From NCBI GenBank assembly GCA_013426015.1, contig CP058998.1:920142-984141 (forward strand): 64,000 nt of DNA, written 5' to 3'. Positions 8,864-51,353 of this stretch are shown here, piece by piece. Under the pieces are notes generated by a model. It ran no database searches. It was not told the DNA's origin and saw only the letters and a program-made list of their open reading frames with translations. The translations under genes were made by a program, and so were the position numbers. Within the stretch, counting starts at the first letter, position 1, and every line of letters starts with the position of its first letter. Source of the DNA: Candidatus Fermentimicrarchaeum limneticum. Lineage in GTDB: Archaea > Micrarchaeota > Micrarchaeia > Burarchaeales > Fermentimicrarchaeaceae.

Positions 8864-8953
8864 GCTCCAGTCGTCTAGTCCGGTCAAGGATCTCGGCCTT
8901 TCGAACTCAGATGAAGAAAGCCGGCGACCCGGGTTCAAATCCCGGCTGGAGCA
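8864..8953 (+). tRNA. tRNA-Glu (anticodon TTC) with a 15-nt intron at 37/38
   Basis: Acceptor GCTCCAG/CTGGAGC, T-arm CCGGG-TTCAAAT-CCCGG, anticodon stem TCGGC/GCCGG and loop CTTTCG..A. The intron is 8904-8918. A 4-bp helix CTTT/GAAG flanked by 3-nt bulges gives BHB geometry. CCA is not encoded. Confidence 0.85.
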
Positions 8954-9628
8954 TCACACCAGATTCAGCAATTCCGTCAGGTTGTTTATTATGTAGTCAG
9001 GCTTCTCCTTCTCCAGCATTTCCCTCTTCTGCGGTCCTGTTGTGACACATGCCATTTTCACTCCCGCATTCCGGGCGAATTTTATATCCGAAACAGTATC
9101 TCCAATGTAAAGACATTTGTTTTTGTCCGTGATGTTCAGTTTTTTCAGTGTGAGATACATTGCATTGGGATATGGGCGCGGCTTATCTGCATCTTCAAAA
9201 GCAACCAGCACTGGGAAGTATTTCAGGATATTGAACTGCTTCAGCAAAACGCGAGCCTCGCTGCGCCCCATTCCGGTCTGGCATGCAGTCCTAACCCGTC
9301 TTGCGTTCAGCTCATCCAAGCATCTGTCCGCTCCGGGCATGATTCGGAACTTGCCCAGAAATTTGCGCGGGTATTCCTTTTCAAAAGATTTATAGCATCT
9401 CATAGTTACGGAATCTACATCCTTTCCCGTATAGGCCTCAGAAACCACGTTCCTCAATACGTTGAGGTGGCCTATCCCGAAATGGATGAATATCCTTTCA
9501 TCTGGTGGCACGGGCAACCGGCTCGTCTTCAGCGTGTCTTTTACTGCCTCCAGCAGCGCATCTTCTGTCCTTATGAGGGTGCCGCCTATATCGAAGATAC
9601 ATACCTCAATCATACCCTGTATATCCAA
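8954..9628 (-). CDS. HAD-superfamily hydrolase (variant motif I)
   Basis: 224 aa. Motif I reads FDIGGT (Asp+2 replaced by Gly). A C-terminal YIGDTVSDI motif is present. Confidence 0.7.
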   Translation of the reverse strand: MDIQGMIEVCIFDIGGTLIRTEDALLEAVKDTLKTSRLPVPPDERIFIHFGIGHLNVLRNVVSEAYTGKDVDSVTMRCYKSFEKEYPRKFLGKFRIMPGADRCLDELNARRVRTACQTGMGRSEARVLLKQFNILKYFPVLVAFEDADKPRPYPNAMYLTLKKLNITDKNKCLYIGDTVSDIKFARNAGVKMACVTTGPQKREMLEKEKPDYIINNLTELLNLV

Positions 9629-9665
9629 GGGAAAGTATATAACCCTGAATTGGTAAAGTTATTTT

Positions 9666-10553
9666 ATGAGGGAACAACTTGTACAAGAGGTAGCGGAGGT
9701 GCTTCTCAACTGCAACTACCTCTCTGTGTACTGCAGCCGGATACACAGCTGCTTTGATATGCTTGCGAAGAGGGAGAAGGAGGCGCTGCTTGTAAAGGTG
9801 CTGGAGAATATCGACGCATTCACAAAGCAGCAGGCAGAGGACATGAGGAAGATTGCTGGAATGCTTGCAGGCAACAGCTTCCTAGTGGGTGAGAAAAGCA
9901 ACGAGTACAAGTTGCAGGATGGGGTGCTCTACGAGAGGCACAAGGTTTCTACGGGCAATTTGAAAACATTCAAGGGAATTGTGGGTCGGGAGGAACTGCC
10001 AAAGATGAGGAAGTTCAGGGAATTGCTGGTTGATATCGACGAGGATAAGATGGTTAGGAGGAGGGGGGAGCTGAAGCTGAGTCTGGAGGGGCTTGCGAGG
10101 AAGTCCGGTATTTCTAAGGAGACGCTGTACAGGTATGAACATGGAAAGATTTATGCAAGCGAGGAGAACGCGAGAAGAATTGAGGAAATCTTAGGGATGG
10201 AAGTGAGGAAGTTCATAGACCCTTTCAGGGGAAGGCAGAAGTTCGTCAGTGAAGATACATTGATAAGCATGCTGGGCTTTGAGAGTGTGAAGATGATGAC
10301 AGCTCCCTTTGACATACTTGGGAAGGAGAGGAAGCTGCTCTTTGCGGGCGAGGAGGCGGACAGGAGGACCATGACGAAGAGGGCTGGGGTATATTCAAGT
10401 ATAATGGATGTGTTCGGCTCTGGCTCATGTTTCATTCTGAACAAATACAGCAAAGACAATATCGCAGGGATACCTGTTGTCAGAAAAAAGGAGATAAAGG
10501 AGATAAAAAAGGCAAAAGAGCTGATGAAGCTTATCGAGGAGAGGGGCGCTTAG
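9666..10553 (+). CDS. archaeal HTH-type transcriptional regulator (cro/C1-type HTH, MJ1164-like family)
   Basis: 295 aa. The N-terminal domain (CFDMLAKREKEALLVKVLENID...FLVGEKS...LQDGVLYERHKV) and the central HTH (LSLEGLARKSGISKETLYRYEHG) are colinear with the conserved archaeal family. Confidence 0.78.
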   Translation: MREQLVQEVAEVLLNCNYLSVYCSRIHSCFDMLAKREKEALLVKVLENIDAFTKQQAEDMRKIAGMLAGNSFLVGEKSNEYKLQDGVLYERHKVSTGNLKTFKGIVGREELPKMRKFRELLVDIDEDKMVRRRGELKLSLEGLARKSGISKETLYRYEHGKIYASEENARRIEEILGMEVRKFIDPFRGRQKFVSEDTLISMLGFESVKMMTAPFDILGKERKLLFAGEEADRRTMTKRAGVYSSIMDVFGSGSCFILNKYSKDNIAGIPVVRKKEIKEIKKAKELMKLIEERGA

Positions 10554-13565: not shown

Positions 13566-13652
13566 CGGGCCCGGGGGGATTCGAACCCCCAACCAACTGG
13601 TCCGAAGCCTTGCGAGTTTCCTAGTCGCGCTGTCCAGTTGCGCCACGGGCCC
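13566..13652 (-). tRNA. tRNA-Arg (anticodon TCG) with a 13-nt intron at the non-canonical position 29/30
   Basis: Acceptor GGGCCCG/CGGGCCC, D-arm GCGC-AACTGGACA-GCGC and T-arm GGGGG-TTCGAAT-CCCCC. Removing 13610-13622 (AGGAAACTCGCAA in the RNA sense) yields a perfect anticodon arm ACTGG-CTTCGGA-CCAGT. A 4-bp helix GCGA/TCGC is flanked by the 3-nt bulges CT|A and AA|G. Confidence 0.75.
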
Positions 13653-38335: not shown

Positions 38336-38881
38336 TCAGATATCGTAAGGCCTTACTTCCTCAAAGCTGACCACGAACTTCTTCTTCGGGCATTTCTCAA
38401 CAGTATCCCTTGCCCTTCCCCCGAGGCTCCTCAATGAGGCGATGAATAAAACCAATTCTCTTCCCCTACCCCTCTTCTCAGCCTCAGCAGCCCTGCCTAT
38501 CAGCGACTCCACCTCGCTCTCAGTAACCTCCTCACCCCATTTCACTTCTCCCAGAATAAGGTACTTTGAGCTTACTCCTATCGCGTCAAAGCAGGCATCA
38601 CCCCAAGTTATTCCGGCGACCTCAGAGGGAGGGACAATAAAACCAGCGTGAACCAATGCATCCCTCACCCTGTCCCTTGCGAATTTTTCCATCTTCTCCA
38701 CTTCGGCAATCTTCCCGTTCTCAAGCAGGACTTCCTGATAGTTGCCTGTGTACTCCAGAGCAGAAATGATTTTTCTCTTAAGAACAGAAATAGGGTCGTC
38801 TATCTCCGCCTTTACCTTATTGAATACTTTCTCAGGCTCCTCCCTCGCCACCCTGCTCTTCAGCACGGCAAGCAGACCCAA
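38336..38881 (-). CDS. hypothetical protein with a PD-(D/E)xK nuclease-like C-terminal half (DUF234-like)
   Basis: 181 aa. FDAIGVSSKYLILGEVKWGEEV fits a D...E-x-K motif as found in the C-terminal domain of archaeal DUF234 ATPases. Confidence 0.35.
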   Translation of the reverse strand: MGLLAVLKSRVAREEPEKVFNKVKAEIDDPISVLKRKIISALEYTGNYQEVLLENGKIAEVEKMEKFARDRVRDALVHAGFIVPPSEVAGITWGDACFDAIGVSSKYLILGEVKWGEEVTESEVESLIGRAAEAEKRGRGRELVLFIASLRSLGGRARDTVEKCPKKKFVVSFEEVRPYDI

Positions 38882-39044
38882 CCTACCACCCCCTTCAAGC
38901 GACCTTCCTGCCGCTGCAGCTTAGAATATAGCGAAAGGTATATATATAACTTTCGTTTCTTTAGACTAATTACAGTTTATTATACGCAATACACCCCAAT
39001 ATACAGAATAGTATTTAAAATACAGAAACCATAACCTATTCAGG

Positions 39045-39395
39045 GTGAATATGGGGAGACAGGCAAACAACCAGGGTGAGCATAAATGGCGCCATCTCAG
39101 GGTGCTGGTGAAGCCCCAGAACCAGGCGATAATACATTTGCTTAGCGACGGCAAGCCCCGCATGCCTGTCGAGATATGCCGGGAGCTGAAGGAGTTCCCC
39201 AAGGCCACTCTGTATATAGCGATGAGGGAGCTTGTGATGAAGAAGATTCTCATACCGAAGATAATTGTGGAAAAGGGAAAAAAGAGGAAGACGCTTACCG
39301 ACATACTGGGCTACACACTGGACCCGGATGTCTCTGAATTGATAAAACTGCTGAATGAGGCCGACAAGCTGGCTGAGAACATATCCATGAGGTAG
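39045..39395 (+). CDS. winged-helix DNA-binding protein (ArsR/TrmB-like), first gene of the V4R operon
   Basis: 116 aa. NQAIIHLLSDGKPRMPVEICRELKEFPKATLYIAMRELVMKKIL is present. The ATG at 39051 is an alternative to the GTG at 39045. Its TAG abuts the next ATG (TAGATG). Confidence 0.6.
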   Translation: MNMGRQANNQGEHKWRHLRVLVKPQNQAIIHLLSDGKPRMPVEICRELKEFPKATLYIAMRELVMKKILIPKIIVEKGKKRKTLTDILGYTLDPDVSELIKLLNEADKLAENISMR

Positions 39396-39905
39396 ATGGG
39401 TTTGAAAGGAATGATATCAATTGAAAAGGGCCTTGTCGTGGTTGCAGGAGAGAGGTCAGTCCTCATACCTCCCAGCTTCATAACACTGCTCCAGGATAGG
39501 GTGATGAAGGAGAAAGGAGAGAAATGGAGGGAGATATTCTACGAAGCGGGAAAGAAGGCGATGGACAATCTGGCACCGACTTACAAACTAATTATGCTCA
39601 TCCCGAGGAATTCTGCTTCGAAGAAAAAATTGATTGAAGAGCTGGTCGAAATCTGGTCTTGGATGAGCTGCGGAAGACCGGAAGTTACGAAAATTGACCT
39701 GAGAAACAACCACTTCACCTTCAGAGTCTACGGCTCCACTATTGCTAAACCATATCTAGGTAGAGGAGAAATGATGTGCGACTACCTGGCAGGGATGGTG
39801 GCTGGAGGATTTGGAAGTATAATCGGGGAGTCTTTGAAATGCAGGGAGGTTAAATGCATCGCAAACGGAAATGAATTCTGTGAGTTTGAAGTAACAGGTG
39901 TATGA
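39396..39905 (+). CDS. stand-alone V4R-domain protein, paralog 1
   Basis: 169 aa. The C-terminus is MCDYLAGMVAGG...KCREVKCIANGNEFCEFEV and the N-terminal segment is GEKWREIFYEAGK. Confidence 0.65.
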   Translation: MGLKGMISIEKGLVVVAGERSVLIPPSFITLLQDRVMKEKGEKWREIFYEAGKKAMDNLAPTYKLIMLIPRNSASKKKLIEELVEIWSWMSCGRPEVTKIDLRNNHFTFRVYGSTIAKPYLGRGEMMCDYLAGMVAGGFGSIIGESLKCREVKCIANGNEFCEFEVTGV

Positions 39906-39906
39906 C

Positions 39907-40473
39907 ATGGCTGACTACGTCCAGAAGAAACGGAAGGAGCTGTTCCTCTTCGGCGAGCAGCTTTCTGTGCTGGATGTCCGAAGCTTCTACTATCTCAAAA
40001 AGGAGCTTGGAAGGAGTGTCAGAAATTCCAACGAGCTTCTCTATGATGCTGGGAAAGACGCGGTTCAGAAGATGCAGTCCAGCTTCGTCAAGTTCCTAGG
40101 GGACAGCGCCAGAGTGCTGATGTCAGATCCAGAGAATGCCTTGAACGAGTTTGTAGAAGTTCTGAACTATCTAGGATTGGGAGAAATATCCATCCCAGAA
40201 TCCGGCCTCAAAACAATTAAGTTCGTGGTGAGGCATTCTGCAGAGGCGCAGGAATATGTGAATCTGAAGGAGAGGAGCAAGTCTCCGGTGTGTTATGCTC
40301 TTGCAGGAATTTTTGCGGGAGTTTGTGAGGGGATACTGCAAAATCCAGTTGAATGCAAAGAGACAAGATGCATTGCTTGTGGAGAGGAGGTTTGCGAGTT
40401 TGTCATTCCGAGTGGTGATGACATAATACTTACACGAGGTGGTGGGGATGATAGACAAGGACATAAAGCATGA
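39907..40473 (+). CDS. stand-alone V4R-domain protein, paralog 2
   Basis: Contains SPVCYALAGIFAGV...ECKETRCIACGEEVCEFVI. The ATG lies 1 nt after the paralog 1 TGA. The track start is the GTG at 39898. Confidence 0.65.
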   Translation: MADYVQKKRKELFLFGEQLSVLDVRSFYYLKKELGRSVRNSNELLYDAGKDAVQKMQSSFVKFLGDSARVLMSDPENALNEFVEVLNYLGLGEISIPESGLKTIKFVVRHSAEAQEYVNLKERSKSPVCYALAGIFAGVCEGILQNPVECKETRCIACGEEVCEFVIPSGDDIILTRGGGDDRQGHKA

Positions 40474-40978
40474 GGTAATTATTGAGGATGGGAAGACGAC
40501 TATTGCTGGGCAGAGAGCAATGCTGCTTTCTGTCAAGACAATAGCCACCCAGCAGAAGGAGCTGGAAAGGCTTGTTGGCGAAAAGTGGGGCGAAGTAGTT
40601 TACGAAGCAGAGAGGAAGGCAATACAGGAGGCAGCCCTGCAGATTTTCGGTCTGAAGCAGCTGGATTCCTTCACGAAGGGCAAAACATTCGACAAGAAGA
40701 GAATGGTTGATACCCTAGTTGATATATTCAACTGCGCCGGCTATGGTGTTTTAAAACTGAAGAAATTTGATGAGAAGAAGCCCTACGCACTTGTGACTAT
40801 GGAGAAGTCAACAATCCCTCAGGAGTATGAGAAGAGGAACTCTCCAGTCTGCTTCAGGGTTGCAGGCATACTCGCCGGAGGTGCCGAAGCGGTGTTCATG
40901 GTGCCCATGAAGTGCAAGGAGACGAAATGCATGTCGATGGGCGATTCGCATTGTGAGTTTGAGATAAGCAGAAGGTGA
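40448..40978 (+). CDS. stand-alone V4R-domain protein, paralog 3
   Basis: Contains SPVCFRVAGILAGG...KCKETKCMSMGDSHCEFEI. The ATG at 40448 is preceded by GAGGTGGTGGGG. The track start is the GTG at 40439. It overlaps the 3' end of paralog 2. Confidence 0.65.
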   Translation: MIDKDIKHEVIIEDGKTTIAGQRAMLLSVKTIATQQKELERLVGEKWGEVVYEAERKAIQEAALQIFGLKQLDSFTKGKTFDKKRMVDTLVDIFNCAGYGVLKLKKFDEKKPYALVTMEKSTIPQEYEKRNSPVCFRVAGILAGGAEAVFMVPMKCKETKCMSMGDSHCEFEISRR

Positions 40979-41538
40979 ATAAATTGAAAGACATGGCAGA
41001 AACCATAAAGTTGGAAGAAGGGAAAGTTACCATGTGCGGTATGCCCATAGTATTTGTCTTCACAAAGTCTGTCTACTACATGCAGAAAGAGTTGGAAAGA
41101 GCGCTAGGTGAGAAGTGGAAGAGAATGATGTACGAATGCGGCAAGAATGATGCAATGATTACCGTATCGGGCTTTTTTTCGCTGTTCCAGAATGAGAATA
41201 AGATAAAAGAACTGCTGCTTGTTGGCAAACCAGACCCCCTGAATAAAGCCGAATCTATGCAGTTCTTTACGAACCAATTCAATAAAATGGGTCTCGGTAG
41301 AGTGGAGATGGCAGAAACAGATGTCAACAAACTATCTTTTATCCTGAGATTCCATTTCAGTCCAGTTGCACAGGCCTATCTGGAACATGAGAAAGGCACT
41401 GAACCAGTATGCCACTATTTCTCGGGTTTGTGGTCCGGTGCATCCTCAACTTTCTACCCTGGCCTAGAAGCTGTTGAAAAGAAGTGCATTTCACGAGGAG
41501 ACCCCTACTGTGAGTTTGAAGTAAAGATGAGGCGATGA
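40975..41538 (+). CDS. stand-alone V4R-domain protein, paralog 4
   Basis: Contains EPVCHYFSGLWSGA...EKKCISRGDPYCEFEV. Start candidates are GTG 40975 (GTGA overlap), TTG 40984 and ATG 40993. The N-terminus aligns with paralogs 5 and 6. Confidence 0.65.
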   Translation: MNKLKDMAETIKLEEGKVTMCGMPIVFVFTKSVYYMQKELERALGEKWKRMMYECGKNDAMITVSGFFSLFQNENKIKELLLVGKPDPLNKAESMQFFTNQFNKMGLGRVEMAETDVNKLSFILRFHFSPVAQAYLEHEKGTEPVCHYFSGLWSGASSTFYPGLEAVEKKCISRGDPYCEFEVKMRR

Positions 41539-41539
41539 T

Positions 41540-42079
41540 GTGAAACATATGGTTGAATTAATGAAACTTAATGAAGGAAAAATTACGTTGTGTGAGGTAC
41601 CTATAATATTCACCTTTACAAAATCAATGTATTACATGCAAAAAGAACTTGAAAAAATGGCAGGAGAAGCCTGGAAGAGAATATTCTACGATTGCGGCAA
41701 GATTGATGGGATAGGTTGCAATTCAAACTATGTAGGTATTTTCCATAACGACCCAGAATTTCAGAAAATAGCGGCCGATAAATTTAATGCCTTTAGCTTT
41801 TGTGTTGATGAGTTCAACAAGCTTGGAAAAGGAAGATTAGAGATAATAACCACAGATAAGGACAAGCCCCTCTTTGTATTGCGATATTATTTTAGTCCCA
41901 TAGCACTAGCCTACTTAGAACATGAGAGAGCTAACAAACCAGTTTGTTACCATTTTGCAGGAGTATTTGCAGGAGCAGCAAATGTTGTCTATCCAGGCAT
42001 AGAGGTAATCGAAACTAAATGCTTCGCGAAGGGAGATCCCTATTGCGAGTTTATTTTTGAAATACCTAAGAACAGGTGA
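41540..42079 (+). CDS. stand-alone V4R-domain protein, paralog 5 (AT-rich block)
   Basis: 179 aa. Contains KPVCYHFAGVFAGA...ETKCFAKGDPYCEFIF. It is closely related to paralog 6. Confidence 0.65.
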   Translation: MKHMVELMKLNEGKITLCEVPIIFTFTKSMYYMQKELEKMAGEAWKRIFYDCGKIDGIGCNSNYVGIFHNDPEFQKIAADKFNAFSFCVDEFNKLGKGRLEIITTDKDKPLFVLRYYFSPIALAYLEHERANKPVCYHFAGVFAGAANVVYPGIEVIETKCFAKGDPYCEFIFEIPKNR

Positions 42080-42083
42080 TTGT

Positions 42084-42620
42084 ATGAAGCACATGATTGA
42101 CACTCTCAAAATAGAGGAAGGGAAAGTTATGATGTGCAATATGCCCTTCATTATCACATTTACAAAATCAATCTACTATATGCAGAAAGAATTACAAAAA
42201 GTAGCTGGAAATTCTTGGAAGAGAATAGTATACGAATGTGGAAAACTGGATGTAACTGTCTTGCAATCAAATTATTTTGCTATGTTCCATGATGACCCGG
42301 CAGTTAAAAAACTGATTTCTGATAGACGCGCTAGTTTTAAATTCTGTGTTGACGAATTCAATAAAATGGGGAAAGGAAAGCTCGAAATAATCGAAGAAGA
42401 TGCAGACAAATTCAGATTCGTTTTGAGGTTGCATTTCTGTGGGATTGCTCTTGCTTACTTAGAACATGAGACAGTCAGAGAGCCCGTTTGTTATCACTTT
42501 GCAGGTATATTCGCAGCTGGAACAAACACATTCTTTCCGGGTGTTGAAGCAGTTGAAACCAAGTGCGTGGCTAAAGGCGATCCATATTGCGAATTCGTTA
42601 TAGAAGTACCTAAGAACTAA
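42084..42620 (+). CDS. stand-alone V4R-domain protein, paralog 6 (AT-rich block)
   Basis: Contains EPVCYHFAGIFAAG...ETKCVAKGDPYCEFVI. The start is placed at MKHMIDTLK by analogy with paralog 5 (MKHMVELMK). The track start is 42057. Confidence 0.65.
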   Translation: MKHMIDTLKIEEGKVMMCNMPFIITFTKSIYYMQKELQKVAGNSWKRIVYECGKLDVTVLQSNYFAMFHDDPAVKKLISDRRASFKFCVDEFNKMGKGKLEIIEEDADKFRFVLRLHFCGIALAYLEHETVREPVCYHFAGIFAAGTNTFFPGVEAVETKCVAKGDPYCEFVIEVPKN

Positions 42621-42650: not shown

Positions 42651-43796
42651 TTAAATGGACTCTATCATTTTAAGTGTCAATAAAAATAGCCTAGGATTAC
42701 TCAAAAAAACACTAATCAGCTTTACTTTATTATTCATAACAATCTCCTTATTAGAGTGATTGAAGTCTACGCAGTCATCCTGCAGTTTCCTCGCTACTCT
42801 CAGAATTAAATCTAAATCATTATTATCCAACTTCTCCAAAATTCTTTTATTGAACTCTCCTCTTCGTATACTAGGATAAATAGTGTTCTTAACCTGTTCT
42901 TCATAATGTCCCAAATCTTCATTTTCTAAGATACTCTTTCCAGCCAAATATGATGAAATTATAGCGTATTTAAAACCAAAACCAAAACAAGGATCTATGA
43001 GACCTGCCGCTTCGCCAACCAATAATATATTATCTCGTGTTATACTCCTTCTCAGACCACTAATGTTACCTTTACCTTGAAAGTAATTTAATATCCTACC
43101 TCTAGGACGAACCGTATTAATGAATTTTTGGTAGCATAATTTTGCATCCCCCCCGGATACTGCACAAATAGTAGTCAGTTTGTCTGATGCTATGTAAACA
43201 TATCCGCTTTGTAACAAGTCTCTATTAAAGTATAGCTGCGGTGCGGAGTCTCTAAGATTCTCAAATTTTCCAGTAGCTCCGTACGCATATAAATACTTCA
43301 TTCTACTTGCCTCAGGATCTACGAAATACGCAGTCCTCGAGTCTCCACCATCCGCCCCAACAATTACATCTGCCTTATCCTCAAAAGTCCTTCCCCCTTT
43401 ATGATAAATCACTTTACCATCATTTATTCTAACAAAACTAGCATTTGTTATCAGTTCACAACCATTATCTAAAGCTTCCTCACTAAGTTGCATTTCAAGG
43501 AGTGGTCTTTCAAACAAAAAATAATCGATTTCACTCAACCTCAGTCTAAATTCCTCATTCTTTGAATGCCATACCGACTGTCTCCCTATACAAGACGGCT
43601 TTATTCTTAATTTTTCCAGAACCTTATCCAAATTACCTGAATTTTCAACCAGATCTATCTTTCTCTTTACAAACCCAACTTTATTTTTTCTCTCTATAAC
43701 TTTAACTTTCATCCTTTTGGATAATATCCGAGATAGCACTAGCCCAGACAAGCCAGCTCCAACAATAAACACTTCCCCCTCCTTAGCCATACTCAT
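42651..43796 (-). CDS. FAD-dependent oxidoreductase, geranylgeranyl-reductase-like
   Basis: 381 aa. It has the N-terminal dinucleotide fold VFIVGAGLSGLVLSRIL...VKVIERK, a later VIVGADGGDSR, and a GEAAGLIDP motif. Confidence 0.55.
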   Translation of the reverse strand: MSMAKEGEVFIVGAGLSGLVLSRILSKRMKVKVIERKNKVGFVKRKIDLVENSGNLDKVLEKLRIKPSCIGRQSVWHSKNEEFRLRLSEIDYFLFERPLLEMQLSEEALDNGCELITNASFVRINDGKVIYHKGGRTFEDKADVIVGADGGDSRTAYFVDPEASRMKYLYAYGATGKFENLRDSAPQLYFNRDLLQSGYVYIASDKLTTICAVSGGDAKLCYQKFINTVRPRGRILNYFQGKGNISGLRRSITRDNILLVGEAAGLIDPCFGFGFKYAIISSYLAGKSILENEDLGHYEEQVKNTIYPSIRRGEFNKRILEKLDNNDLDLILRVARKLQDDCVDFNHSNKEIVMNNKVKLISVFLSNPRLFLLTLKMIESI

Positions 43797-43938: not shown

Positions 43939-44313
43939 ATGTCCGAAGAAACTATGCTAAGTGTATTAGAAGACCTGCTCAAAGAAGAAGATGTACTAGC
44001 GATAATGTTAGCCCGAAAAAATGAAATCTCGGTGAGTCCACCACCAGACAAGTTCAAATTGAAAAATCCCTCGATATTTTCTCTTCTTCAATCAACAATG
44101 AATGAGTTTTTTGTTGTAATAGAAAAATTTTCTTCACAAGGATTAGATAAGATATATTTCGAACTAGGAGAATACGAACTCATGTTCTTTCTTATAGGTG
44201 GCGATACTGCATTAGTGTCAATAATACCCGCTCTAGCTAATAAAGGTCTCTTAGAGGTTGAGATGGAAAATGCGAGACTAAAAATAAGAGAACTTATACA
44301 AAAAGGAGTCTAA
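43939..44313 (+). CDS. Roadblock/LC7 (MglB-like) domain protein
   Basis: 124 aa. The alpha-beta-beta-alpha-beta-beta-alpha pattern, with VLAIMLARKN...IYFELGEYELMFFLIGGDTALVSIIP, is typical of Robl/LC7. Confidence 0.5.
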   Translation: MSEETMLSVLEDLLKEEDVLAIMLARKNEISVSPPPDKFKLKNPSIFSLLQSTMNEFFVVIEKFSSQGLDKIYFELGEYELMFFLIGGDTALVSIIPALANKGLLEVEMENARLKIRELIQKGV

Positions 44314-45561
44314 ATGTTTAGTGCAAGTGTCGGACTATCCAGAAATTGGGAACCTTTCGATGCGGGAGAAGAGATAGTAATAAATACCCTAGAAAAATTG
44401 GAGGGAGAACCGAAATTTTTTCTCTTATTCCCGACAATCCACTTCGAAAAAAACAATGGCTTTCAAAAATTACTTGATGGAGTTTTTTCGCAACTAAATA
44501 GGAGTACCCCACTACTTGGGTGCAGTGTTGCTGGCTTTATTAATCCAAAAGGATGCTATACGAGAGGCGTTACCAGCCTCGCAATTGCTGATCCAGACAT
44601 GCAGGTTACCATTGCCTTAGGTAAAAATGCGAAAAAGACCCCCCAGAAGGCTGCAGAAGAATTTGCCAATATGATTAAGAAAGAAAAATCAAAAAACAAT
44701 AGTGGTGTTCTTTTCCTAATATTGCCGGGATCAACTCTTCCTAAAGACATTTTTCATAGAACACGACGTATTAGCAATCCACTGTTATCGTCACTTTTTG
44801 ATAAATTTTTTCCACTCTATCTAGCACTATCTAAAGAGGGAGTGGCGAAAGAATCGGAATTCATAGACAAATTATATTCACGTATATCCGAAAAAATGAT
44901 CGGCATCTCTGCTTGGGATAATAACTTAGGTTTTAGTAACTATCAATTTTTTGGTAATCGAGTTCTACAAAATAGTGCGGTTGGCCTATATCTAAGTTTT
45001 AGTGGAGAAATAACAATAAAATATGCCACACCACTAAAGATTTTTTCAGAAAAATTACGGGTAACAAAAAAGGATAACTCTAACTATCTTATAAATGAAA
45101 TAAACGGTCTAAATGCGCCGGACCTTTTCTTCAAAGAACTAAAACTTGAAAAAAAATATCTCACCGAGGAGCTACTTAGAAAAATAACATTGGGCTTCCC
45201 TATAAGCGCATACTGCGGTAATATATTTTTCAATAGAGTTATTGGTCTATACTCTGATAAATTTTTAGGTCTAACTACTGCTCTAAATACCCCCGAAATC
45301 TACATCTCGACAGCAAGTGGCAGTTCTATAATTAATTCCTTCGATAAAGTTACAGATGGTGGAGAAAAAACCAATTTCGTTTTTGGCGTGAGCTGTGCAG
45401 TTCTTTTAGAAGAAGTAGGCAGTAAAATTTTTGAAGTAAAAAATATTCTAGAAAAAAAACAGATTAAGAATTTTCTATTTTTGTTTGGCGGTTCTGAACA
45501 TTTTATGACCGAAGTAACTCCGATTTCTAGTCAAGAGAGTTCAGTAACTACCTTTTTTTAA
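44314..45561 (+). CDS. FIST-domain-like sensor protein (FIST_N + FIST_C layout)
   Basis: 415 aa. PKFFLLFPTIHFEK...STPLLGCSVAGFINPKGCYTRGVTSLAIA resembles the FIST N-domain. It starts at the codon after the Robl stop (TAAATG). Confidence 0.4.
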   Translation: MFSASVGLSRNWEPFDAGEEIVINTLEKLEGEPKFFLLFPTIHFEKNNGFQKLLDGVFSQLNRSTPLLGCSVAGFINPKGCYTRGVTSLAIADPDMQVTIALGKNAKKTPQKAAEEFANMIKKEKSKNNSGVLFLILPGSTLPKDIFHRTRRISNPLLSSLFDKFFPLYLALSKEGVAKESEFIDKLYSRISEKMIGISAWDNNLGFSNYQFFGNRVLQNSAVGLYLSFSGEITIKYATPLKIFSEKLRVTKKDNSNYLINEINGLNAPDLFFKELKLEKKYLTEELLRKITLGFPISAYCGNIFFNRVIGLYSDKFLGLTTALNTPEIYISTASGSSIINSFDKVTDGGEKTNFVFGVSCAVLLEEVGSKIFEVKNILEKKQIKNFLFLFGGSEHFMTEVTPISSQESSVTTFF

Positions 45562-45649: not shown

Positions 45650-46891
45650 ATGAGTAAATATATAATCGCGGGAGGAGGACTGGCGGGTCTAGCTGCGGCT
45701 TATGCTATGCAGAACACCAAGAATAACATCTCATTATTAGAAGCTGAAAATAGAGTCGGCGGGAGGATACTCACTATACCCCATCATGGTCGATTCATGG
45801 ACCTAGGTGCTCAGTTCTACTGTAGAGGAAATCATAATTTTTGGAATCTTGCAACCGCGGTTGGTTGCTCACCCCCGAAGATCATCAAAGGTCTCGTCCC
45901 AAATATCTATCATCAGGATCGTAGACTTCTACTAACACTAAAGAATATCCTGCTGAACACCTCACTTAAAGAAAAGATAGAACTGTCAAAACTACGTTAT
46001 AAATTAAATAGGTTTGATTATAACTCCGATTTTAATATAGACAATGACACTACTTTTAGTGAGTGGTACTACAAGCATATTGGCAACGAAATGCTATGGC
46101 TTTGTGATGCCCTCCTACGCGGTATTTGCTTCTCATACTCTAATAAAATATCAGCCGGTTATGCATTAAGAATACTCAAGGCTATACTTGCAGATAACCT
46201 TTATACATTCAACGAAGGAATGGGGGAGATAAACACAAAACTTGAGAATTTTTTAAATAGAAGAAAAAACGTACATCTTATCCTGAAGGCTGATATAAAA
46301 AAAATAAATATAGAGAATGACGCCGTATCTGACTGCACCTATGAATTTCAAAATAATTTAGTTAATGTAAATACGAATAAATTAATTTCAACAGTACCCG
46401 CTCCGATCTTATACAAGGTATTAAATCAAAAGATAAAACCACTAAATGAGATCGAATACAGCCCCGTGGTATATCTCCTGCTCCTCTTTAACAAACATAT
46501 GCGAGGGGACTTAGACATCTTCTTCTCGGACCCGAAATTCCCCATAAGCGGAACTGCAAATGAGATGTATAAATTTCAAGGTGGTATGGGTGCACTGGGT
46601 GTTATCTTCCCAGATTGTGGAAAAATTATCAAAAAGACAAATGACCAGATAACTAACCTAGCCATCAATCTGCTTTCCGACAAATTACCTATTAATGAAA
46701 AACACATCACAGGAAGCATAGTTCTACGTTGGCATTATGGTATGCCGGTACCATCACCGCAATTTTTCATTAATCAAAATGCAATAAAAAATCATGGAAT
46801 TGACGGTTTGTATATATGCGGTGATTTTATGAATATGCCATGTCTAGAAGGGGCCATAGTAAGTGTGTATGACTCGCTTAATCTAAAATAA
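45650..46891 (+). CDS. FAD-dependent oxidoreductase, amine-oxidase / phytoene-desaturase / protoporphyrinogen-oxidase superfamily
   Basis: 413 aa. It has N-terminal IIAGGGLAGLAAAYAM...LLEAENRVGGRI...DLGAQF and the C-terminal motif LYICGDF...EGAIVS. Confidence 0.65.
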   Translation: MSKYIIAGGGLAGLAAAYAMQNTKNNISLLEAENRVGGRILTIPHHGRFMDLGAQFYCRGNHNFWNLATAVGCSPPKIIKGLVPNIYHQDRRLLLTLKNILLNTSLKEKIELSKLRYKLNRFDYNSDFNIDNDTTFSEWYYKHIGNEMLWLCDALLRGICFSYSNKISAGYALRILKAILADNLYTFNEGMGEINTKLENFLNRRKNVHLILKADIKKINIENDAVSDCTYEFQNNLVNVNTNKLISTVPAPILYKVLNQKIKPLNEIEYSPVVYLLLLFNKHMRGDLDIFFSDPKFPISGTANEMYKFQGGMGALGVIFPDCGKIIKKTNDQITNLAINLLSDKLPINEKHITGSIVLRWHYGMPVPSPQFFINQNAIKNHGIDGLYICGDFMNMPCLEGAIVSVYDSLNLK

Positions 46892-46971: not shown

Positions 46972-47094
46972 TCACACCTTATCTTTATTCTCAATAACTA
47001 CAGTACGAACTCCTAACTTAGCCAATTTCAATGCAGCAGTACCTCCAGCCGGCCCGGCCCCAACAACCAGCACGTCACAATTCTGAGTTACCAT
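46972..47094 (-). pseudogene. truncated 5' fragment (40 codons) of a geranylgeranyl-reductase-family gene
   Basis: The minus strand reads MVTQNCDVLVVGAGPAGGTAALKLAKLGVRTVVIENKDKV* and then breaks off into AT-rich non-coding DNA. Its ATG overlaps the stop region of the upstream membrane-protein gene. Confidence 0.7.
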
Positions 47095-47722
47095 TGAACA
47101 ACCCATTTGAAGCAGTGCCAACCCGCCTCACAATAATCTCATCCGGCGTGTCCATCACTATGAACTCGTACATCCCCCTTATAATCCTGTTGGCATACCC
47201 TCCAACCATGTGGTAAGACAAATCAAACAGAAAGAATGCCAAGAAATAAATCGGCTCGAATACACCAGCAATAACCAGTAGCAGCATTACTACCTGCATG
47301 CTGAACCTGAAGTGGAAGAATGTCTTCCAAAAAGGCGAGTTTATCAGCCCCAGATCAGCCCTGTTGTTCCCCATCTCATCAATTATCCCACCGAAAACCA
47401 AAGCCGCAATTGGGAGCCAGTTCAGCATTATCGAGTTCGCAAGGAATATCGGAATTGCAAATGCAACAACAGTTGCAACCATGAAAACCGGCGTGTCTAT
47501 CTTTCTGCTTATTGCAACACCAATCACAACTGCAATTCCTATTGAGGATGCAGTCCTGTCTGTAGCTATGATATAACCGCCCAGCAACCCGCACATTACT
47601 CCAAGTGCAATCGCAACCCTCTTGTCAAACACTCCTTCGTCATACACGCAGTCAATGTACTTCAACCCGGCCCCGAGGAAGGCGAAGCTAACAAGCAGCA
47701 AGTAATACTCCATCTCTACCAC
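47075..47722 (-). CDS. polytopic membrane protein, hypothetical
   Basis: 215 aa with about 6-7 hydrophobic spans. It is translationally coupled to the truncated reductase fragment. Confidence 0.5.
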   Translation of the reverse strand: MVEMEYYLLLVSFAFLGAGLKYIDCVYDEGVFDKRVAIALGVMCGLLGGYIIATDRTASSIGIAVVIGVAISRKIDTPVFMVATVVAFAIPIFLANSIMLNWLPIAALVFGGIIDEMGNNRADLGLINSPFWKTFFHFRFSMQVVMLLLVIAGVFEPIYFLAFFLFDLSYHMVGGYANRIIRGMYEFIVMDTPDEIIVRRVGTASNGLFNGNSEL

Positions 47723-47764
47723 ATCTGGTCGCAGTTTTTCTTTCCATCCCCGGCTATTTATACT

Positions 47765-48214
47765 TTATGCCTTAGTCACCCTGAAACCTTCAGTAACCTT
47801 CTTCACAAGTTGGTGGAAGACGAAACCCCTGTGCTTCAGATCAAGGAAGAGCTGCACGGAATTGTCGCTCCTTATCAGGTCAAATACCTTCACCCTGTCC
47901 CTCACAGGGGCAAGCAGAACGTCAATGTCAATGGGATGCCCCCTCTCACCACCTGAAATGGTAATCATGCCAATCCCCCTTGTGACATAGAACTCCACGT
48001 CCCCCTTCGCAACCTTGTCAAGTATCTTCAAGGCCCTCTCGTACTCAGTCTCCTTAACGTAGAACTTCAGCTTATCCTTCTCAAGCATTATACCGTAGAT
48101 GCTTATGCCGGCCTTCCCCAATGAGCCAAGTACGTTGACAAGCACCCTGTGGCTCTTAGGGTTGCCTTTAACGACAACATTCGCAAGCGCGTGCTTCAGC
48201 ATCTTCAGTTCCAT
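47765..48214 (-). CDS. tandem ACT-domain-like protein
   Basis: 149 aa. It has two beta-alpha-beta-beta-alpha-beta-like halves (VLVNVLGSLGKAGISIYGIM... and GMITISGG...), as in aspartokinase-type ACT pairs. Confidence 0.4.
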   Translation of the reverse strand: MELKMLKHALANVVVKGNPKSHRVLVNVLGSLGKAGISIYGIMLEKDKLKFYVKETEYERALKILDKVAKGDVEFYVTRGIGMITISGGERGHPIDIDVLLAPVRDRVKVFDLIRSDNSVQLFLDLKHRGFVFHQLVKKVTEGFRVTKA

Positions 48215-48264
48215 GCCTAGTTATTTCTAATAATAAGTATTTAAAAATAACAGAAAGAACAGGC

Positions 48265-48984
48265 CTATTTCTCTACAACTATACCTTTTGGCCCTATGCT
48301 CATCGTCCTTGCAAGGAAATCGTGCTTGGTCAGCCTCATCTTCTCCACAACCATCGTTCTCTTGCCAAGCGCCTCTATCTTCGTCATCTTTATCACGCCG
48401 TCAACTAGATACTCACATGTTTCTTTGGCGCTCTCGAACGTCCTCTCCTCGTAGACATACACCACCGTGCTCGTGCCTGCCTCCCTCACCCTTCTTATGA
48501 ACCTTGTTGTCAATGCCCTCAGAAGCATGTCCTCAGAGATAGGTATGCCGCCAACCTTCTTTATCGCCTCGAATATCTGGTCAGCTACAAACTCCTCCCT
48601 GCTGAGAGGAAGCTTGCTCAGGAAAGAAGTAAGTGAGTCGACAACAACCCTTGTTGGCTTGAATGTCTTTATATCCGAAACAATCAACCCCTCCATGTCA
48701 GGCTCCCGGGTAATATCGTAATTCTTGAACTCGACTGGCAGCCCATCAAACTTCCACCCGAACATGTCTGCCTGCTGCCTCAAGCTGTCTTCTCCCTGCG
48801 TGAAGGAGACGTACATCCCTTTATCCTTGTACTGCTTTGCGCCGTTGTAGAGAAACTGCAGTCCAAAAATAGTCTTCAAAGTGCCTGGGGAGCCCTTCAC
48901 AAGTATGGCGGAACCCTCTGGGAATCCGCCTTCAACAATCTTATCCAGCTCTTCCATACCCGTCGCAATCCTCTTGAACGCCAT
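48265..48984 (-). CDS. KaiC/RadA-like ATPase with an atypical Walker A
   Basis: 239 aa. It has GMEELDKIVEGGFPEGSAILVKGSPGTLKT, where GxxGxGKT is expected and the Gly before Lys is Leu. Walker B is RVVVDSLTS. Confidence 0.65.
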   Translation of the reverse strand: MAFKRIATGMEELDKIVEGGFPEGSAILVKGSPGTLKTIFGLQFLYNGAKQYKDKGMYVSFTQGEDSLRQQADMFGWKFDGLPVEFKNYDITREPDMEGLIVSDIKTFKPTRVVVDSLTSFLSKLPLSREEFVADQIFEAIKKVGGIPISEDMLLRALTTRFIRRVREAGTSTVVYVYEERTFESAKETCEYLVDGVIKMTKIEALGKRTMVVEKMRLTKHDFLARTMSIGPKGIVVEK

Positions 48985-49046
48985 TTCCCCACCTCATTAC
49001 TGAGAGAGATTAGTGCATGAGGGTATTTATAAGTTTATGTAAGAAG

Positions 49047-49136
49047 TAGCGGGGCGTGGATTTGAACCACGGATCTCTGGGTTTCCCACGAAGGAGATAT
49101 GAGCCCAGCGGGCACTCCATGCTACCCTACCCCGCT
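49047..49136 (-). tRNA. initiator tRNA-Met (anticodon CAT) with a 15-nt intron at 37/38
   Basis: A1:U72 acceptor AGCGGGG/CCCCGCT, and three G:C pairs at the end of the anticodon stem CTGGG/CCCAG. The loop is CTCATA..A and the T-arm is CGTGG-TTCAAAT-CCACG. The intron is 49083-49097. The helix CTCA/TGGG with flanking 3-nt bulges gives BHB geometry. Confidence 0.85.
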
Positions 49137-50030: not shown

Positions 50031-50666
50031 TTATTTAGATATTTCCTTCTTTTTCTCAACAAAAGCAAGCGGAGCGCCACAGTCAAGACATTTGAACTTA
50101 TTCTCAAACGCAACCTCAAAAGGAATCAGGACGCCCTCACCCTTCTTGCAGGAACTGCAACTGTAGAAGTCAAAGCTCTCCTCACCGACTTCCTTCAGGG
50201 GCAGCTCCTTCTTTTTCTCAAAAAGCTTGTCAGCATTCTGCAGGGACATCCTCCATATGTAGGAATACCATCCGCTGTCCTTGTCTCTCGTCCTCTCGTA
50301 GGAAGTCAGCCCCAACGAATGCAGCTTGTTCAGGACCGCCCTCACCTCGCTCAGTTTTATCCTGCACGCGTTAGCCAGATCCTCATCGCTCAACGGCTCC
50401 TCAAGAGCTTCTGCGACTGCGATGGCCTTCTCGCCGGCAACCTGCAGAATCAGATTCCTGATATGCTCCTCGGCAAGCTTTCCTGAAATAACCCTTCTTC
50501 TGGTTCTCTTCCTTCTAACTGGTCTAATCCCCAGAATTGGCTTCCTTGCAAACTTTCTGCGTATTCTTCTGGCAACCCCTGTCCTGCGCTTCCTTGCCGC
50601 AGCCACCGTTCTCCTCGCAGCCCTCTTCCTGACTCTGGAGCGCACCTTGCGCTTCCTCATCTTCAT
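50031..50666 (-). CDS. tfe: transcription factor E (TFE-alpha) with an Arg/Lys-rich N-terminal extension
   Basis: Residues 65-211 have the TFE wHTH (IAVAEALEEPLSDEDLANACRIKLSEVRAVLNKLHSLGLTSYERTRD...GWYSYIW) and the Zn ribbon CSSC...CLDCG. Residues 1-64 are about half Arg/Lys. Confidence 0.75.
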   Translation of the reverse strand: MKMRKRKVRSRVRKRAARRTVAAARKRRTGVARRIRRKFARKPILGIRPVRRKRTRRRVISGKLAEEHIRNLILQVAGEKAIAVAEALEEPLSDEDLANACRIKLSEVRAVLNKLHSLGLTSYERTRDKDSGWYSYIWRMSLQNADKLFEKKKELPLKEVGEESFDFYSCSSCKKGEGVLIPFEVAFENKFKCLDCGAPLAFVEKKKEISK

Positions 50667-51214: not shown

Positions 51215-51253
51215 ACTTTTATATTATGCTGGCTATAAAGATTACCTTGCTGT

Positions 51254-51339
51254 GGGCCCGTAGCTCAGCTTGGCAGAGCGGTTGGCTCTTAAAAACTAGG
51301 GAAACCAATAGGTCGCGCGTTCAAATCGCGCCGGGCCCG
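51254..51339 (+). tRNA. tRNA-Lys (anticodon CTT) with a 12-nt intron at 37/38
   Basis: Acceptor GGGCCCG/CGGGCCC, D-arm GCTC-AGCTTGGCA-GAGC and anticodon stem GTTGG/CCAAT. The loop is CTCTTA..A and the T-arm is GCGCG-TTCAAAT-CGCGC. The intron is 51292-51303. The helix CTCT/AGGG is flanked by 3-nt bulges. Confidence 0.88.
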
Positions 51340-51353
51340 TTTACGGTGATTCT

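Follow-up and report, generated by a model that had tools for sequence, protein, structure and literature searches.

Positions 39045–42620 of the 64 000-nucleotide stretch of the Candidatus Fermentimicrarchaeum limneticum genome analysed here (contig CP058998.1; hereafter the window) contain seven co-directional, closely packed open reading frames (ORFs) on the plus strand, with a gene span of 39051–42620 and all reading frames intact. The first, ORF1, encodes a predicted winged-helix protein and the following six, V1–V6, encode stand-alone V4R proteins (Table 1). This array represents a tandem expansion, specific to one subgroup of Micrarchaeota, of a stand-alone V4R protein of the type found in the DPANN archaea, and each of its members is predicted to adopt a complete sensor-type fold that carries residues of a structural zinc site. 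We tentatively favor, at a likelihood slightly below even, an interpretation in which V1–V6 form dimers and bind hydrophobic ligands of the isoprenoid type, as carriers or sensors.

All six proteins reach the gathering cut-off of the Pfam V4R family (PF02830; 31 bits) in a hidden Markov model (HMM) search, which bears out the domain call of an initial annotation that was made by reading the DNA. V4 barely clears this cut-off, yet scores 265 bits with an HMM built from the family. With six significant matches to one family in a row, chance cannot explain the assignment. The description of the proteins as stand-alone modules lacking an output domain also stands: at 169–188 residues they contain no further domains, and both the AAA+ sigma-54 interaction domain and a C-terminal helix–turn–helix fusion are absent from V1–V6. 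The C-terminal signature proposed in the same annotation is real, with the C, G(+5), E, C, G, C, E and F columns invariant in all six sequences, while the proposed N-terminal motif is present in V2–V6 and is matched just partly by V1. V4–V6, which had been described as closer to one another, are mutually 48–60% identical versus 23–31% to V1–V3.

In a search of the family profile against solved structures, the matches were MJ1460 (E = 4e-7), the phenol-sensor domain of MopR (E = 4e-6) and PoxR. Positions 8–168 of the profile align with residues 32–191 of MopR, which is approximately the whole MopR sensor domain. This nearly full-length alignment indicates that each paralog represents a whole sensor-type fold extending beyond the 62-residue Pfam core, and we conclude that each of V1–V6 is predicted to consist of an XylR_N-like N-terminal half followed by V4R. 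The XylR_N Pfam model itself gives a weak match in V3 alone (E = 0.07). A Cys...Glu-x2-Cys-x7-Cys pattern is invariant in the six window paralogs and in 26 of the 26 array paralogs examined. Its first Cys, the Glu and the second Cys align with the first three zinc ligands of MopR, and the last Cys lies three columns after the fourth. V1–V6 therefore carry the residues of a predicted structural zinc site, with three of the four MopR ligand positions matched, and the conserved Cys and C-E-F string is not in itself a hallmark of ligand binding. A zinc site of this kind in PoxR and Thor-TRAPPC3 links the β-sheet to a helix and creates the ligand cavity (PMC10933270).

Related genome and contig loci (labelled L001 onwards) were fetched for comparison, using the V4–V6 clade as the query alignment of the genome scan, and all were scanned with the family HMM. 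The closest public genome is a Micrarchaeota metagenome-assembled genome (MAG; L006) with 83% identity. Among all fetched loci, arrays of at least four V4R genes are confined to close Micrarchaeota relatives: L006 has nine V4R genes (two, a gene for a pyridoxal phosphate (PLP)-dependent enzyme and then seven), L001 has four intact genes and one that is frameshifted, and L002 and L004 have four each, ending at a contig edge. Outside these relatives, V4R genes are single, paired (adjacent pairs in L037, L044, L059, L068 and L074–L076), triple or fused into double-V4R proteins. A search of 1.84 billion representative proteins yields just 31 with E values below 1e-30, many of the top ones being two-domain fusions, and fused double-V4R proteins of 350–480 residues are among the closest outside relatives (L007 9668–11843, L016 9827–11074 and L054 2–1186). 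The L007 region holds two double-V4R genes in tandem and thus four domains.

Phylogenetic trees resolve separate orthogroups for V1, V2, V3 and V4 and a V5/V6 clade of variable copy number, and group them into two super-classes, A (V1, V2 and V3) and B (V4, V5 and V6). The order of the orthogroups is conserved in L001, L002, L004 and L006, and the number of class-B copies ranges from one to five among relatives. Identities between paralogs are 23–60% and those between orthologs are 53–94%. The ratio of nonsynonymous to synonymous substitution rates (dN/dS), calculated against L006 or L004, is 0.04–0.19 for each paralog, with V3 under the strongest constraint. The array clade as a whole is sister to the single-copy V4R genes of other DPANN archaea. 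On these substitution rates and trees, we conclude that V1–V6 are old paralogs that are individually maintained under purifying selection and are neither recent duplicates nor pseudogenes. The V3 ortholog in L001 (9358–9992) is split over two overlapping frames (9358–9669 and 9612–9992), through either pseudogenization by frameshift or a fault in the assembly. The PLP-dependent enzyme gene of L006 (2354–3442), a member of the PALP family with a weak likeness to threonine or cysteine synthase, lies between V2 and V3; a PALP-family gene also immediately precedes V3 where the contigs of L002 (2–847) and L004 (1–546) are truncated and upstream of ORF1 in L089 (8799–9821), and is absent at the window position.

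Translation starts were chosen from Shine–Dalgarno-like GGTG/GAGG motifs and from the N-termini of orthologs. The seven packed plus-strand ORFs of the initial annotation were all found, together with the junctions TAGATG at 39393–39398, TGA-c-ATG at 39903–39909 and GTGA at 40975–40978. Its statement that the remaining junctions amount to 4 nt or less holds for the V4/V5 and V5/V6 spacers (1 and 4 nt, respectively) but fails for V2 and V3, which overlap by 26 nt (V3 ATG at 40448, V2 stop at 40471–40473), the 20-residue C-terminal tail of V2 covering the start of V3. The dense packing is consistent with a single transcript of ORF1 and V1–V6; V1–V6 would then be transcribed together with ORF1 from the ORF1 promoter, with translational coupling between the genes. 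Two elements upstream of ORF1 are candidate promoter or operator sites. The AT-rich element GAAAGGTATATATATAAC is nearly identical in the window, L001, L006, L085 and L087, though the ORF1 proteins of these loci are 57–92% identical. The palindrome GTATTTAAAATAC, ∼28 nt upstream of the ORF1 ATG, is identical in the window, L001 and L006.

The ligand type that we favor is suggested by the genes found beside V4R genes elsewhere, in particular beside the closest single-copy relatives of V1–V6 among DPANN archaea. In two Iainarchaeota loci (L013 9234–11388 and L014 503–2657) the ORFs for a KaiC-like protein, a V4R protein and a UbiA prenyltransferase abut or overlap. L010 8265–12291 contains KaiC-like, UbiA, V4R and geranylgeranyl reductase (GGR) genes followed by a homolog of the 215-residue protein encoded downstream of the array (Table 1), and in the Micrarchaeota locus L087 (3992–6257) a KaiC-like gene adjoins V4R–UbiA. 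A UbiA-family gene lies within about 1.2 kb of the V4R gene in L017, and UbiA and KaiC-like genes both lie within about 2.2 kb of it. Further KaiC-like genes stand beside V4R genes in L024, L048, L056, L063 and L084, and the V4R/KaiC-like adjacency spans Iainarchaeota, Micrarchaeota, Aenigmatarchaeota, Bathyarchaeia and Methanomethylicia. Over 77 genome loci, a small and partly redundant sample, the density of KaiC-like matches up to 1.5 kb from V4R genes is ∼7-fold that of the other flanking DNA, and the UbiA matches fall within 1.5 kb of V4R in four cases out of four. The scores of the UbiA proteins are intermediate between DGGGP-synthase and chlorophyll-synthase types and are below all curated cut-offs. 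In the bacteriochlorophyll pathway a UbiA-type prenyltransferase (BchG) operates alongside a geranylgeranyl reductase (BchP), and the same families occur beside V4R genes here. Near the arrays themselves, the window and its relatives carry between one and three genes of the GGR family plus a gene for a desaturase-like oxidase, and the L001 array is followed by an HAD gene and then by PcrB/GGGP synthase. GGGPS and DGGGPS have been reported for all major Micrarchaeota lineages (PMC12892359).

We infer both the ligand and the oligomeric state of V1–V6. The proteins would be soluble binders of a small hydrophobic molecule, for which an isoprenoid or a prenylated lipid or cofactor is the most likely candidate. 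They would act as homodimers or heterodimers; dimers, probably including heterodimers, are expected because of the fused double-V4R relatives, the bacterial V4R gene pairs and the dimers formed by homologs, PoxR and Thor-TRAPPC3 being homodimers and eukaryotic TRAPPC3 and TRAPPC6 forming a heterodimer (PMC10933270). Cyanobacterial and pre-PcyA clusters typically contain such V4R pairs (PMC10151467). In a chaperone-like manner, such as has been suggested but not verified for BchJ (PMC7242693), V1–V6 may hand substrates to the neighboring GGR-type and desaturase-type flavoenzymes or report substrate levels to them. Alternatively, they may signal through a conserved module of Roadblock, FIST and KaiC-like proteins. 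Separate paralogs would serve separate ligands or separate partner proteins, and the ideas of hetero-oligomers and of combinatorial sensing put forward in the initial annotation are plausible.

Several observations weigh against an isoprenoid-binding role. The link to UbiA and GGR is guilt by association, drawn from few loci in which all UbiA matches are below curated cut-offs. The L001 array occurs without the Roadblock/FIST/GGR block, and in the window a convergent gene stands between the array and the block. L089 retains the block though the array has been lost, which shows that the block does not need the array. Furthermore, the conserved Cys residues could form a redox switch instead of a site that is purely structural (PMC3729527).

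ORF1 matches Pfam families below threshold (HxlR, 12.9 bits versus 20.8; HTH_20, 12.1 versus 27; E about 0.1), and sequence-profile searches of the PDB gave no significant match for either ORF1 or the 124-residue protein encoded downstream. An AlphaFold model of ORF1 calculated from 12 homologs has a predicted local distance difference test score (pLDDT) of 80 and a predicted template-modeling score (pTM) of 0.68, and a Foldseek search with the model places YodB, SqrR, SmtB, CzrA and HxlR on top (template-modeling (TM) scores of 0.57–0.73, probability 1.0). On the strength of this model ORF1 has the predicted fold of the small, dimeric winged-helix repressors, with probable DNA binding, and the winged-helix call of the initial annotation is borne out. 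There are 13 homologs, those with a source name all being from Micrarchaeota, and dN/dS is 0.07. The initial annotation had also taken ORF1 for a regulator dedicated to the array. This reading is ruled out by ORF1 orthologs (57–82% identical) in L085, L087 and L089, which keep the same divergent neighbor of ∼180 residues and have no V4R array; in L085 and L089 the ORF1 region also adjoins pyrD. In L089 (∼10346–10490, equivalent to L020 10001–10141) the ORF1 stop is directly followed by an in-frame 47-residue V4R remnant, IPVRHAIAGILAGVCEGVLRNSVECTETKCMAKGDPYCEFVIEIPKKQ, the start of which is V2-like and the end of which resembles the last class-B paralog. Judged from these two ends, the remnant is the scar of a recombinational deletion of the whole array. 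The scar indicates that the array can be lost and that ORF1 has a role of its own, and the winged-helix protein would be an older, independent regulator that is not specific to the array. The divergent 181-residue gene upstream of ORF1 gave no family-model match in library searches. By eye, the C-terminal half of its product shows a D...E-V-K pattern (FDAIG...LGEVKWG) that resembles PD-(D/E)xK nucleases.

Other functions for the array can be weighed against these data. V1–V6 may be split MsvR-like redox sensors in which a thiol switch at the V4R Cys/zinc site, acting in trans through the winged-helix protein or through other factors, adjusts transcription when oxidants are present, an explanation that we consider unlikely but worth taking seriously. 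MsvR resembles the array in combining winged-helix and V4R elements, although it is a single fused polypeptide restricted to methanogens, whereas here a separate winged-helix gene, the stop codon of which abuts the V1 start codon, precedes six V4R genes. It is the top named NCBIfam match of V1–V3 (E about 1e-7), and the nearest structural matches of ORF1, YodB, SqrR and SmtB, are thiol- or metal-sensing repressors. The three conserved Cys residues of V1–V6 are spaced like C206, C232 and C240 of Methanosarcina MsvR (MaMsvR), which affect its redox-dependent DNA binding (PMC3729527). However, the MsvR model (NF053755) gives 15.7–31.9 bits versus a cut-off of 220, with the C-terminal half of the model alone covered, and the same Cys positions hold a structural zinc in the ligand sensor MopR. 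A single redox signal would hardly justify six to nine diverged paralogs, and the persistence of ORF1 without V4R genes in L085, L087 and L089 shows that it does not depend on them. A role as tetrapyrrole carriers, in which the paralogs chaperone a scavenged or synthesized heme, bilin or chlorophyll-like precursor, is distinctly unlikely. BchJ is likewise a V4R protein, of unproven catalysis, the loss of which leads to excretion of divinyl-protochlorophyllide and for which the chaperone role was suggested (PMC7242693), and clusters with bilin reductase and heme oxygenase contain V4R pairs (PMC10151467). There are weak profile matches to H-NOX heme domains (E about 0.02), the neighboring oxidase and FIST protein have sub-threshold matches to protoporphyrinogen oxidase and to the nitric-oxide sensor NosP, and the associated UbiA proteins score near chlorophyll synthase. 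These scores nevertheless fall far short: 12.3–21.4 versus 74.3 bits for the BchJ model (TIGR02019), 58 versus 98 for protoporphyrinogen oxidase and 38 versus 450 for NosP. The photosynthesis context of BchJ is absent here, no related locus shows a heme or bilin enzyme, and the alignment shows no conserved His or axial ligand besides the zinc-site Cys.

It is improbable that the Bet3-fold paralogs form, together with the Roadblock protein, a TRAPP-like membrane-associated scaffold for membrane or lipid traffic. V4R is homologous to Bet3/TRAPPC3, and the Bet3 family likewise consists of diverged paralogs that form homodimers or heterodimers in TRAPP (PMC2253512); the resemblance extends to Thorarchaeota TRAPPC3 (PMC10933270). 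An Ignicoccus V4R protein has been found at membranes, at putative fusion sites (PMC5468417). The next gene after the array in L002 and L006 is the one with the Roadblock fold, and conserved paralogs in a fixed order with coupled translation would fit a stoichiometric complex. Mammalian TRAPPC3/C6 contains bound palmitate, and the zinc site of Thor-TRAPPC3 is of the Cys4 type (PMC10933270), in contrast to the PoxR/MopR-type pattern of zinc ligands seen here. The Pfam TRAPP_Bet3 model (PF04051) has no match in V1–V6 at E ≤ 1, a simple P-loop, DxxG and NKxD motif scan of the 64-kb window found no ORF resembling a small GTPase, none was called at related loci and no longin-domain gene was identified. 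Roadblock–FIST pairs exist without V4R arrays, and a class-B copy number that varies from one to five between relatives would be odd for a fixed complex. A related proposal is that the paralogs assemble in gene order as a hetero-oligomer, possibly with the Roadblock and KaiC-like proteins, to give a machine for lipid or isoprenoid transfer or for membrane tethering. This is a long shot; if true, the hetero-oligomer would be a prokaryotic multi-paralog analogue of the TRAPP core and could bear on membrane building or the acquisition of host lipids by small DPANN archaea. That V1–V6 are sensors of phenol or aromatic pollutants of the XylR/DmpR/MopR kind, cut loose from their output domains, is very improbable in spite of the full-length profile alignment to MopR, to which identity is low. 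The AAA+/sigma-54 output domain is missing, there are no aromatic-catabolism genes in the window segment or at related loci, and to our knowledge archaea have no sigma-54. Finally, it is barely credible that V1–V6 are decaying or selfish duplicates without individual function. Copy number does differ between relatives, V3 is frameshifted in L001 and the array is deleted in L089, but ortholog conservation reaches 94%, the predicted zinc ligands are invariant and every reading frame in the window is intact; the dN/dS range of 0.04–0.19, found in every paralog, led us to rule this reading out. A defense-system reading was also dropped, as PADLOC models gave no match for ORF1, V1–V6 or the Roadblock, FIST and KaiC-like proteins.

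The binding of isoprenoid-type ligands, the interpretation that we prefer, draws in part on the genes downstream of the array. The array had been described as lacking attached enzymes; it adjoins GGR-family and amine-oxidase/phytoene-desaturase flavoproteins as well as Roadblock, FIST and KaiC-like genes, and a PLP-dependent enzyme gene lies inside the arrays of relatives. The GGR-family protein matches the NCBIfam model GG-red-SF (E = 1.8e-24) under its cut-off, and its paralogs in L089 match GGR_cat, one of them clearing the TIGR02032 cut-off. The 124-residue protein has no Pfam match in the library searched. Its AlphaFold model (pLDDT 92) resembles Asgard Roadblock proteins (9jue and 7f8m) and MglB (Foldseek TM scores of 0.65–0.78), and on this model the protein has a Roadblock/LC7/MglB fold; among its more than 184 database homologs are sequences of Iainarchaeota and Thermoplasmata. 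The Roadblock gene of L002 and L006 is on the same strand as the array, ∼50 nt past the last V4R gene. The similarity of the FIST protein to NosP is weak. A pair of Roadblock (119–124 residues) and FIST genes, adjacent or slightly overlapping and with no gene for a partner GTPase close by, is kept in L002, L004, L006, L085, L086 and L089, and the same six loci conserve the block that includes the 215-residue, 149-residue and KaiC-like genes (47075–48984). For the 413-residue flavoprotein every NCBIfam match is under its cut-off, the best being protoporphyrinogen oxidase.

The G+C content (GC) of segment 41549–46891, which comprises V5, V6 and the GGR-like, Roadblock, FIST and amine oxidase genes, is 0.35–0.38, compared with 0.46–0.54 for flanking genes and 0.485 for the window. 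V1–V3 have values of 0.46–0.48 and the flanks lie near 0.50; L006 shows a matching shift at these genes. The low GC common to V5, V6 and the block indicates that the class-B copies are historically tied to the block, and the segment, class-B V4R copies included, may have been acquired horizontally or may be a recombining module. The FIST proteins of the window and of L006 (7636–8922) are 35% identical and the Roadblock proteins are 77% identical; the amine oxidase matches its L006 copy with a phmmer E value of 1.7e-245 (2.5e-286 for the copy in the window). The divergent FIST sequence beside conserved neighbors suggests mosaic replacement within the block.

Table 1. Features of the array region and its surroundings (positions are those of the window; strand. 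denotes none assigned).
Feature	Coordinates	Strand	Description	Orthologs (identity), dN/dS and GC
Divergent 181-residue gene	38336..38881	-	181 aa	Orthologs beside ORF1 in L001, L006, L085, L087, L089
AT-rich element GAAAGGTATATATATAAC	38933..38950	.	Candidate archaeal TATA/promoter, between divergent 181-aa gene and ORF1	
Palindrome GTATTTAAAATAC	39011..39023	+	Candidate promoter and/or operator of operon; 6+1+6, holds TTTAAAA TATA-like box	
ORF1	39051..39395	+	Predicted winged helix-turn-helix, HxlR/ArsR-SmtB type; ATG 39051, 114 aa; operon gene 1	
V1	39396..39905	+	Stand-alone V4R protein, class A; 169 aa; Pfam V4R 46.4 bits	L001_1 87%, L006_1 77%; dN/dS 0.14
V2	39907..40473	+	Stand-alone V4R protein, class A; 188 aa; Pfam V4R 54.3 bits	L001_2 73%, L006_2 53%; dN/dS 0.19
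V3	40448..40978	+	Stand-alone V4R protein, class A; 176 aa; Pfam V4R 56.8 bits	Paralog with highest conservation: 92–94% in L002, L004, L006; dN/dS 0.04–0.05
V4	40975 or 40993..41538	+	Stand-alone V4R protein, class B; 181–187 aa; Pfam V4R 31.5 bits	L006_4 92%; dN/dS 0.14
V5	41540 or 41549..42079	+	Stand-alone V4R protein, class B; 176–179 aa; Pfam V4R 41.3 bits	L006_7 82%; dN/dS 0.075; GC 0.37
V6	42084..42620	+	Stand-alone V4R protein, class B; 178 aa; Pfam V4R 36.3 bits	L004_4 85%; dN/dS 0.074; GC 0.38
Geranylgeranyl-reductase-family FAD protein	42651..43796	-	381 aa; convergent with array; Pfam FAD_binding_3	
Roadblock/LC7/MglB-fold protein (predicted)	43939..44313	+	124 aa	
FIST-domain protein	44314..45561	+	415 aa; Pfam FIST_N E = 8e-17	
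Amine-oxidase/phytoene-desaturase/protoporphyrinogen-oxidase-family flavoprotein	45650..46891	+	413 aa; Pfam Amino_oxidase E = 1e-20	
215-residue protein	47075..47722	-	Hydrophobic, probably membrane, protein (sequence read by eye)	
149-residue protein	47765..48214	-	Weak likeness to aspartate kinase C-terminal region	
KaiC-like ATPase	48265..48984	-	Single-domain, 239 aa	

Elsewhere in the window, a TFIIE-alpha homolog (50031–50666, minus strand) has an N-terminal extension of ∼60 residues with an exceptionally high content of Arg and Lys (MKMRKRKVRSRVRKRAARR...). Four tRNA genes of 87–91 nt are located at 8864–8953, 13566–13652, 49046–49136 and 51253–51340. ARAGORN assigned no anticodon to the last of these and Rfam missed the third; introns are a likely cause of these discrepancies.

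Stand-alone V4R proteins and bacterial V4R pairs were previously known, as was the expansion to 7–9 V4R proteins in Ignicoccus hospitalis, which was called unusual for its small genome (PMC2253512, PMC2614490). V1–V6 resemble MJ1460 (COG1719; PDB 2osd and 2oso), an archaeal single-domain V4R protein whose function is not known; in our alignment it differs in having Ile, not Cys, at the first zinc-ligand position. Loci fetched from I. pacificus and other Desulfurococcales contain V4R genes singly or as divergent pairs, those of Desulfurococcales MAGs encoding ∼250–290 residues, in contrast to the six to nine short paralogs in one co-directional array described here; I. hospitalis was compared through the literature alone. 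In the cyanobacterial slr0144–slr0149 and pre-PcyA clusters two diverged V4R paralogs (clades A and B) are kept together (PMC10151467), and the adjacent V4R pairs of bacterial loci L037, L074 and L075 resemble them. These clusters differ in having pairs, and they also encode an Fe–S protein, a globin and bilin enzymes, all of which are missing from the present locus. The sensors MopR, PoxR and DmpR (XylR_N and V4R; PDB 5kbe and 5fru) share the same full-length fold by sequence profile, with aligned Cys, Glu and Cys, and PoxR forms a homodimer that encloses a ligand cavity (PMC10933270). There is no sign of phenolic ligands here, and the proteins of the present array are archaeal, stand-alone, six in a row and without an AAA+ or DNA-binding output. 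Our literature search turned up no report of six to nine diverged V4R paralogs arranged co-directionally in a DPANN genome, nor any of the V4R/KaiC-like/UbiA linkage, the latter search leaving aside a 2017 survey of archaeal KaiC-like proteins that may list V4R. A 2025 comparison of 163 Micrarchaeota genomes does not mention V4R (PMC12892359).

Stand-alone archaeal V4R proteins have no assigned function in the literature examined, and their fold is the proposed ancestor of the TRAPP Bet3 subunits. The locus, from a small genome with a largest contig of about 1.2 Mb, offers a compact test bed with natural controls, in the form of relatives with four, nine or no copies or with a deletion scar, and the recurrent link of the nearest single-copy V4R genes to UbiA, GGR and KaiC-like genes leads to testable expectations of isoprenoid binding, pairwise assembly and KaiC-like signaling. 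If V1–V6 are ordinary homodimeric sensors, the array would be a lineage-specific family expansion of local interest. If the proposed role is confirmed, it would provide a function for a widespread domain and would add to what is understood of membrane-lipid handling or signaling in DPANN archaea.

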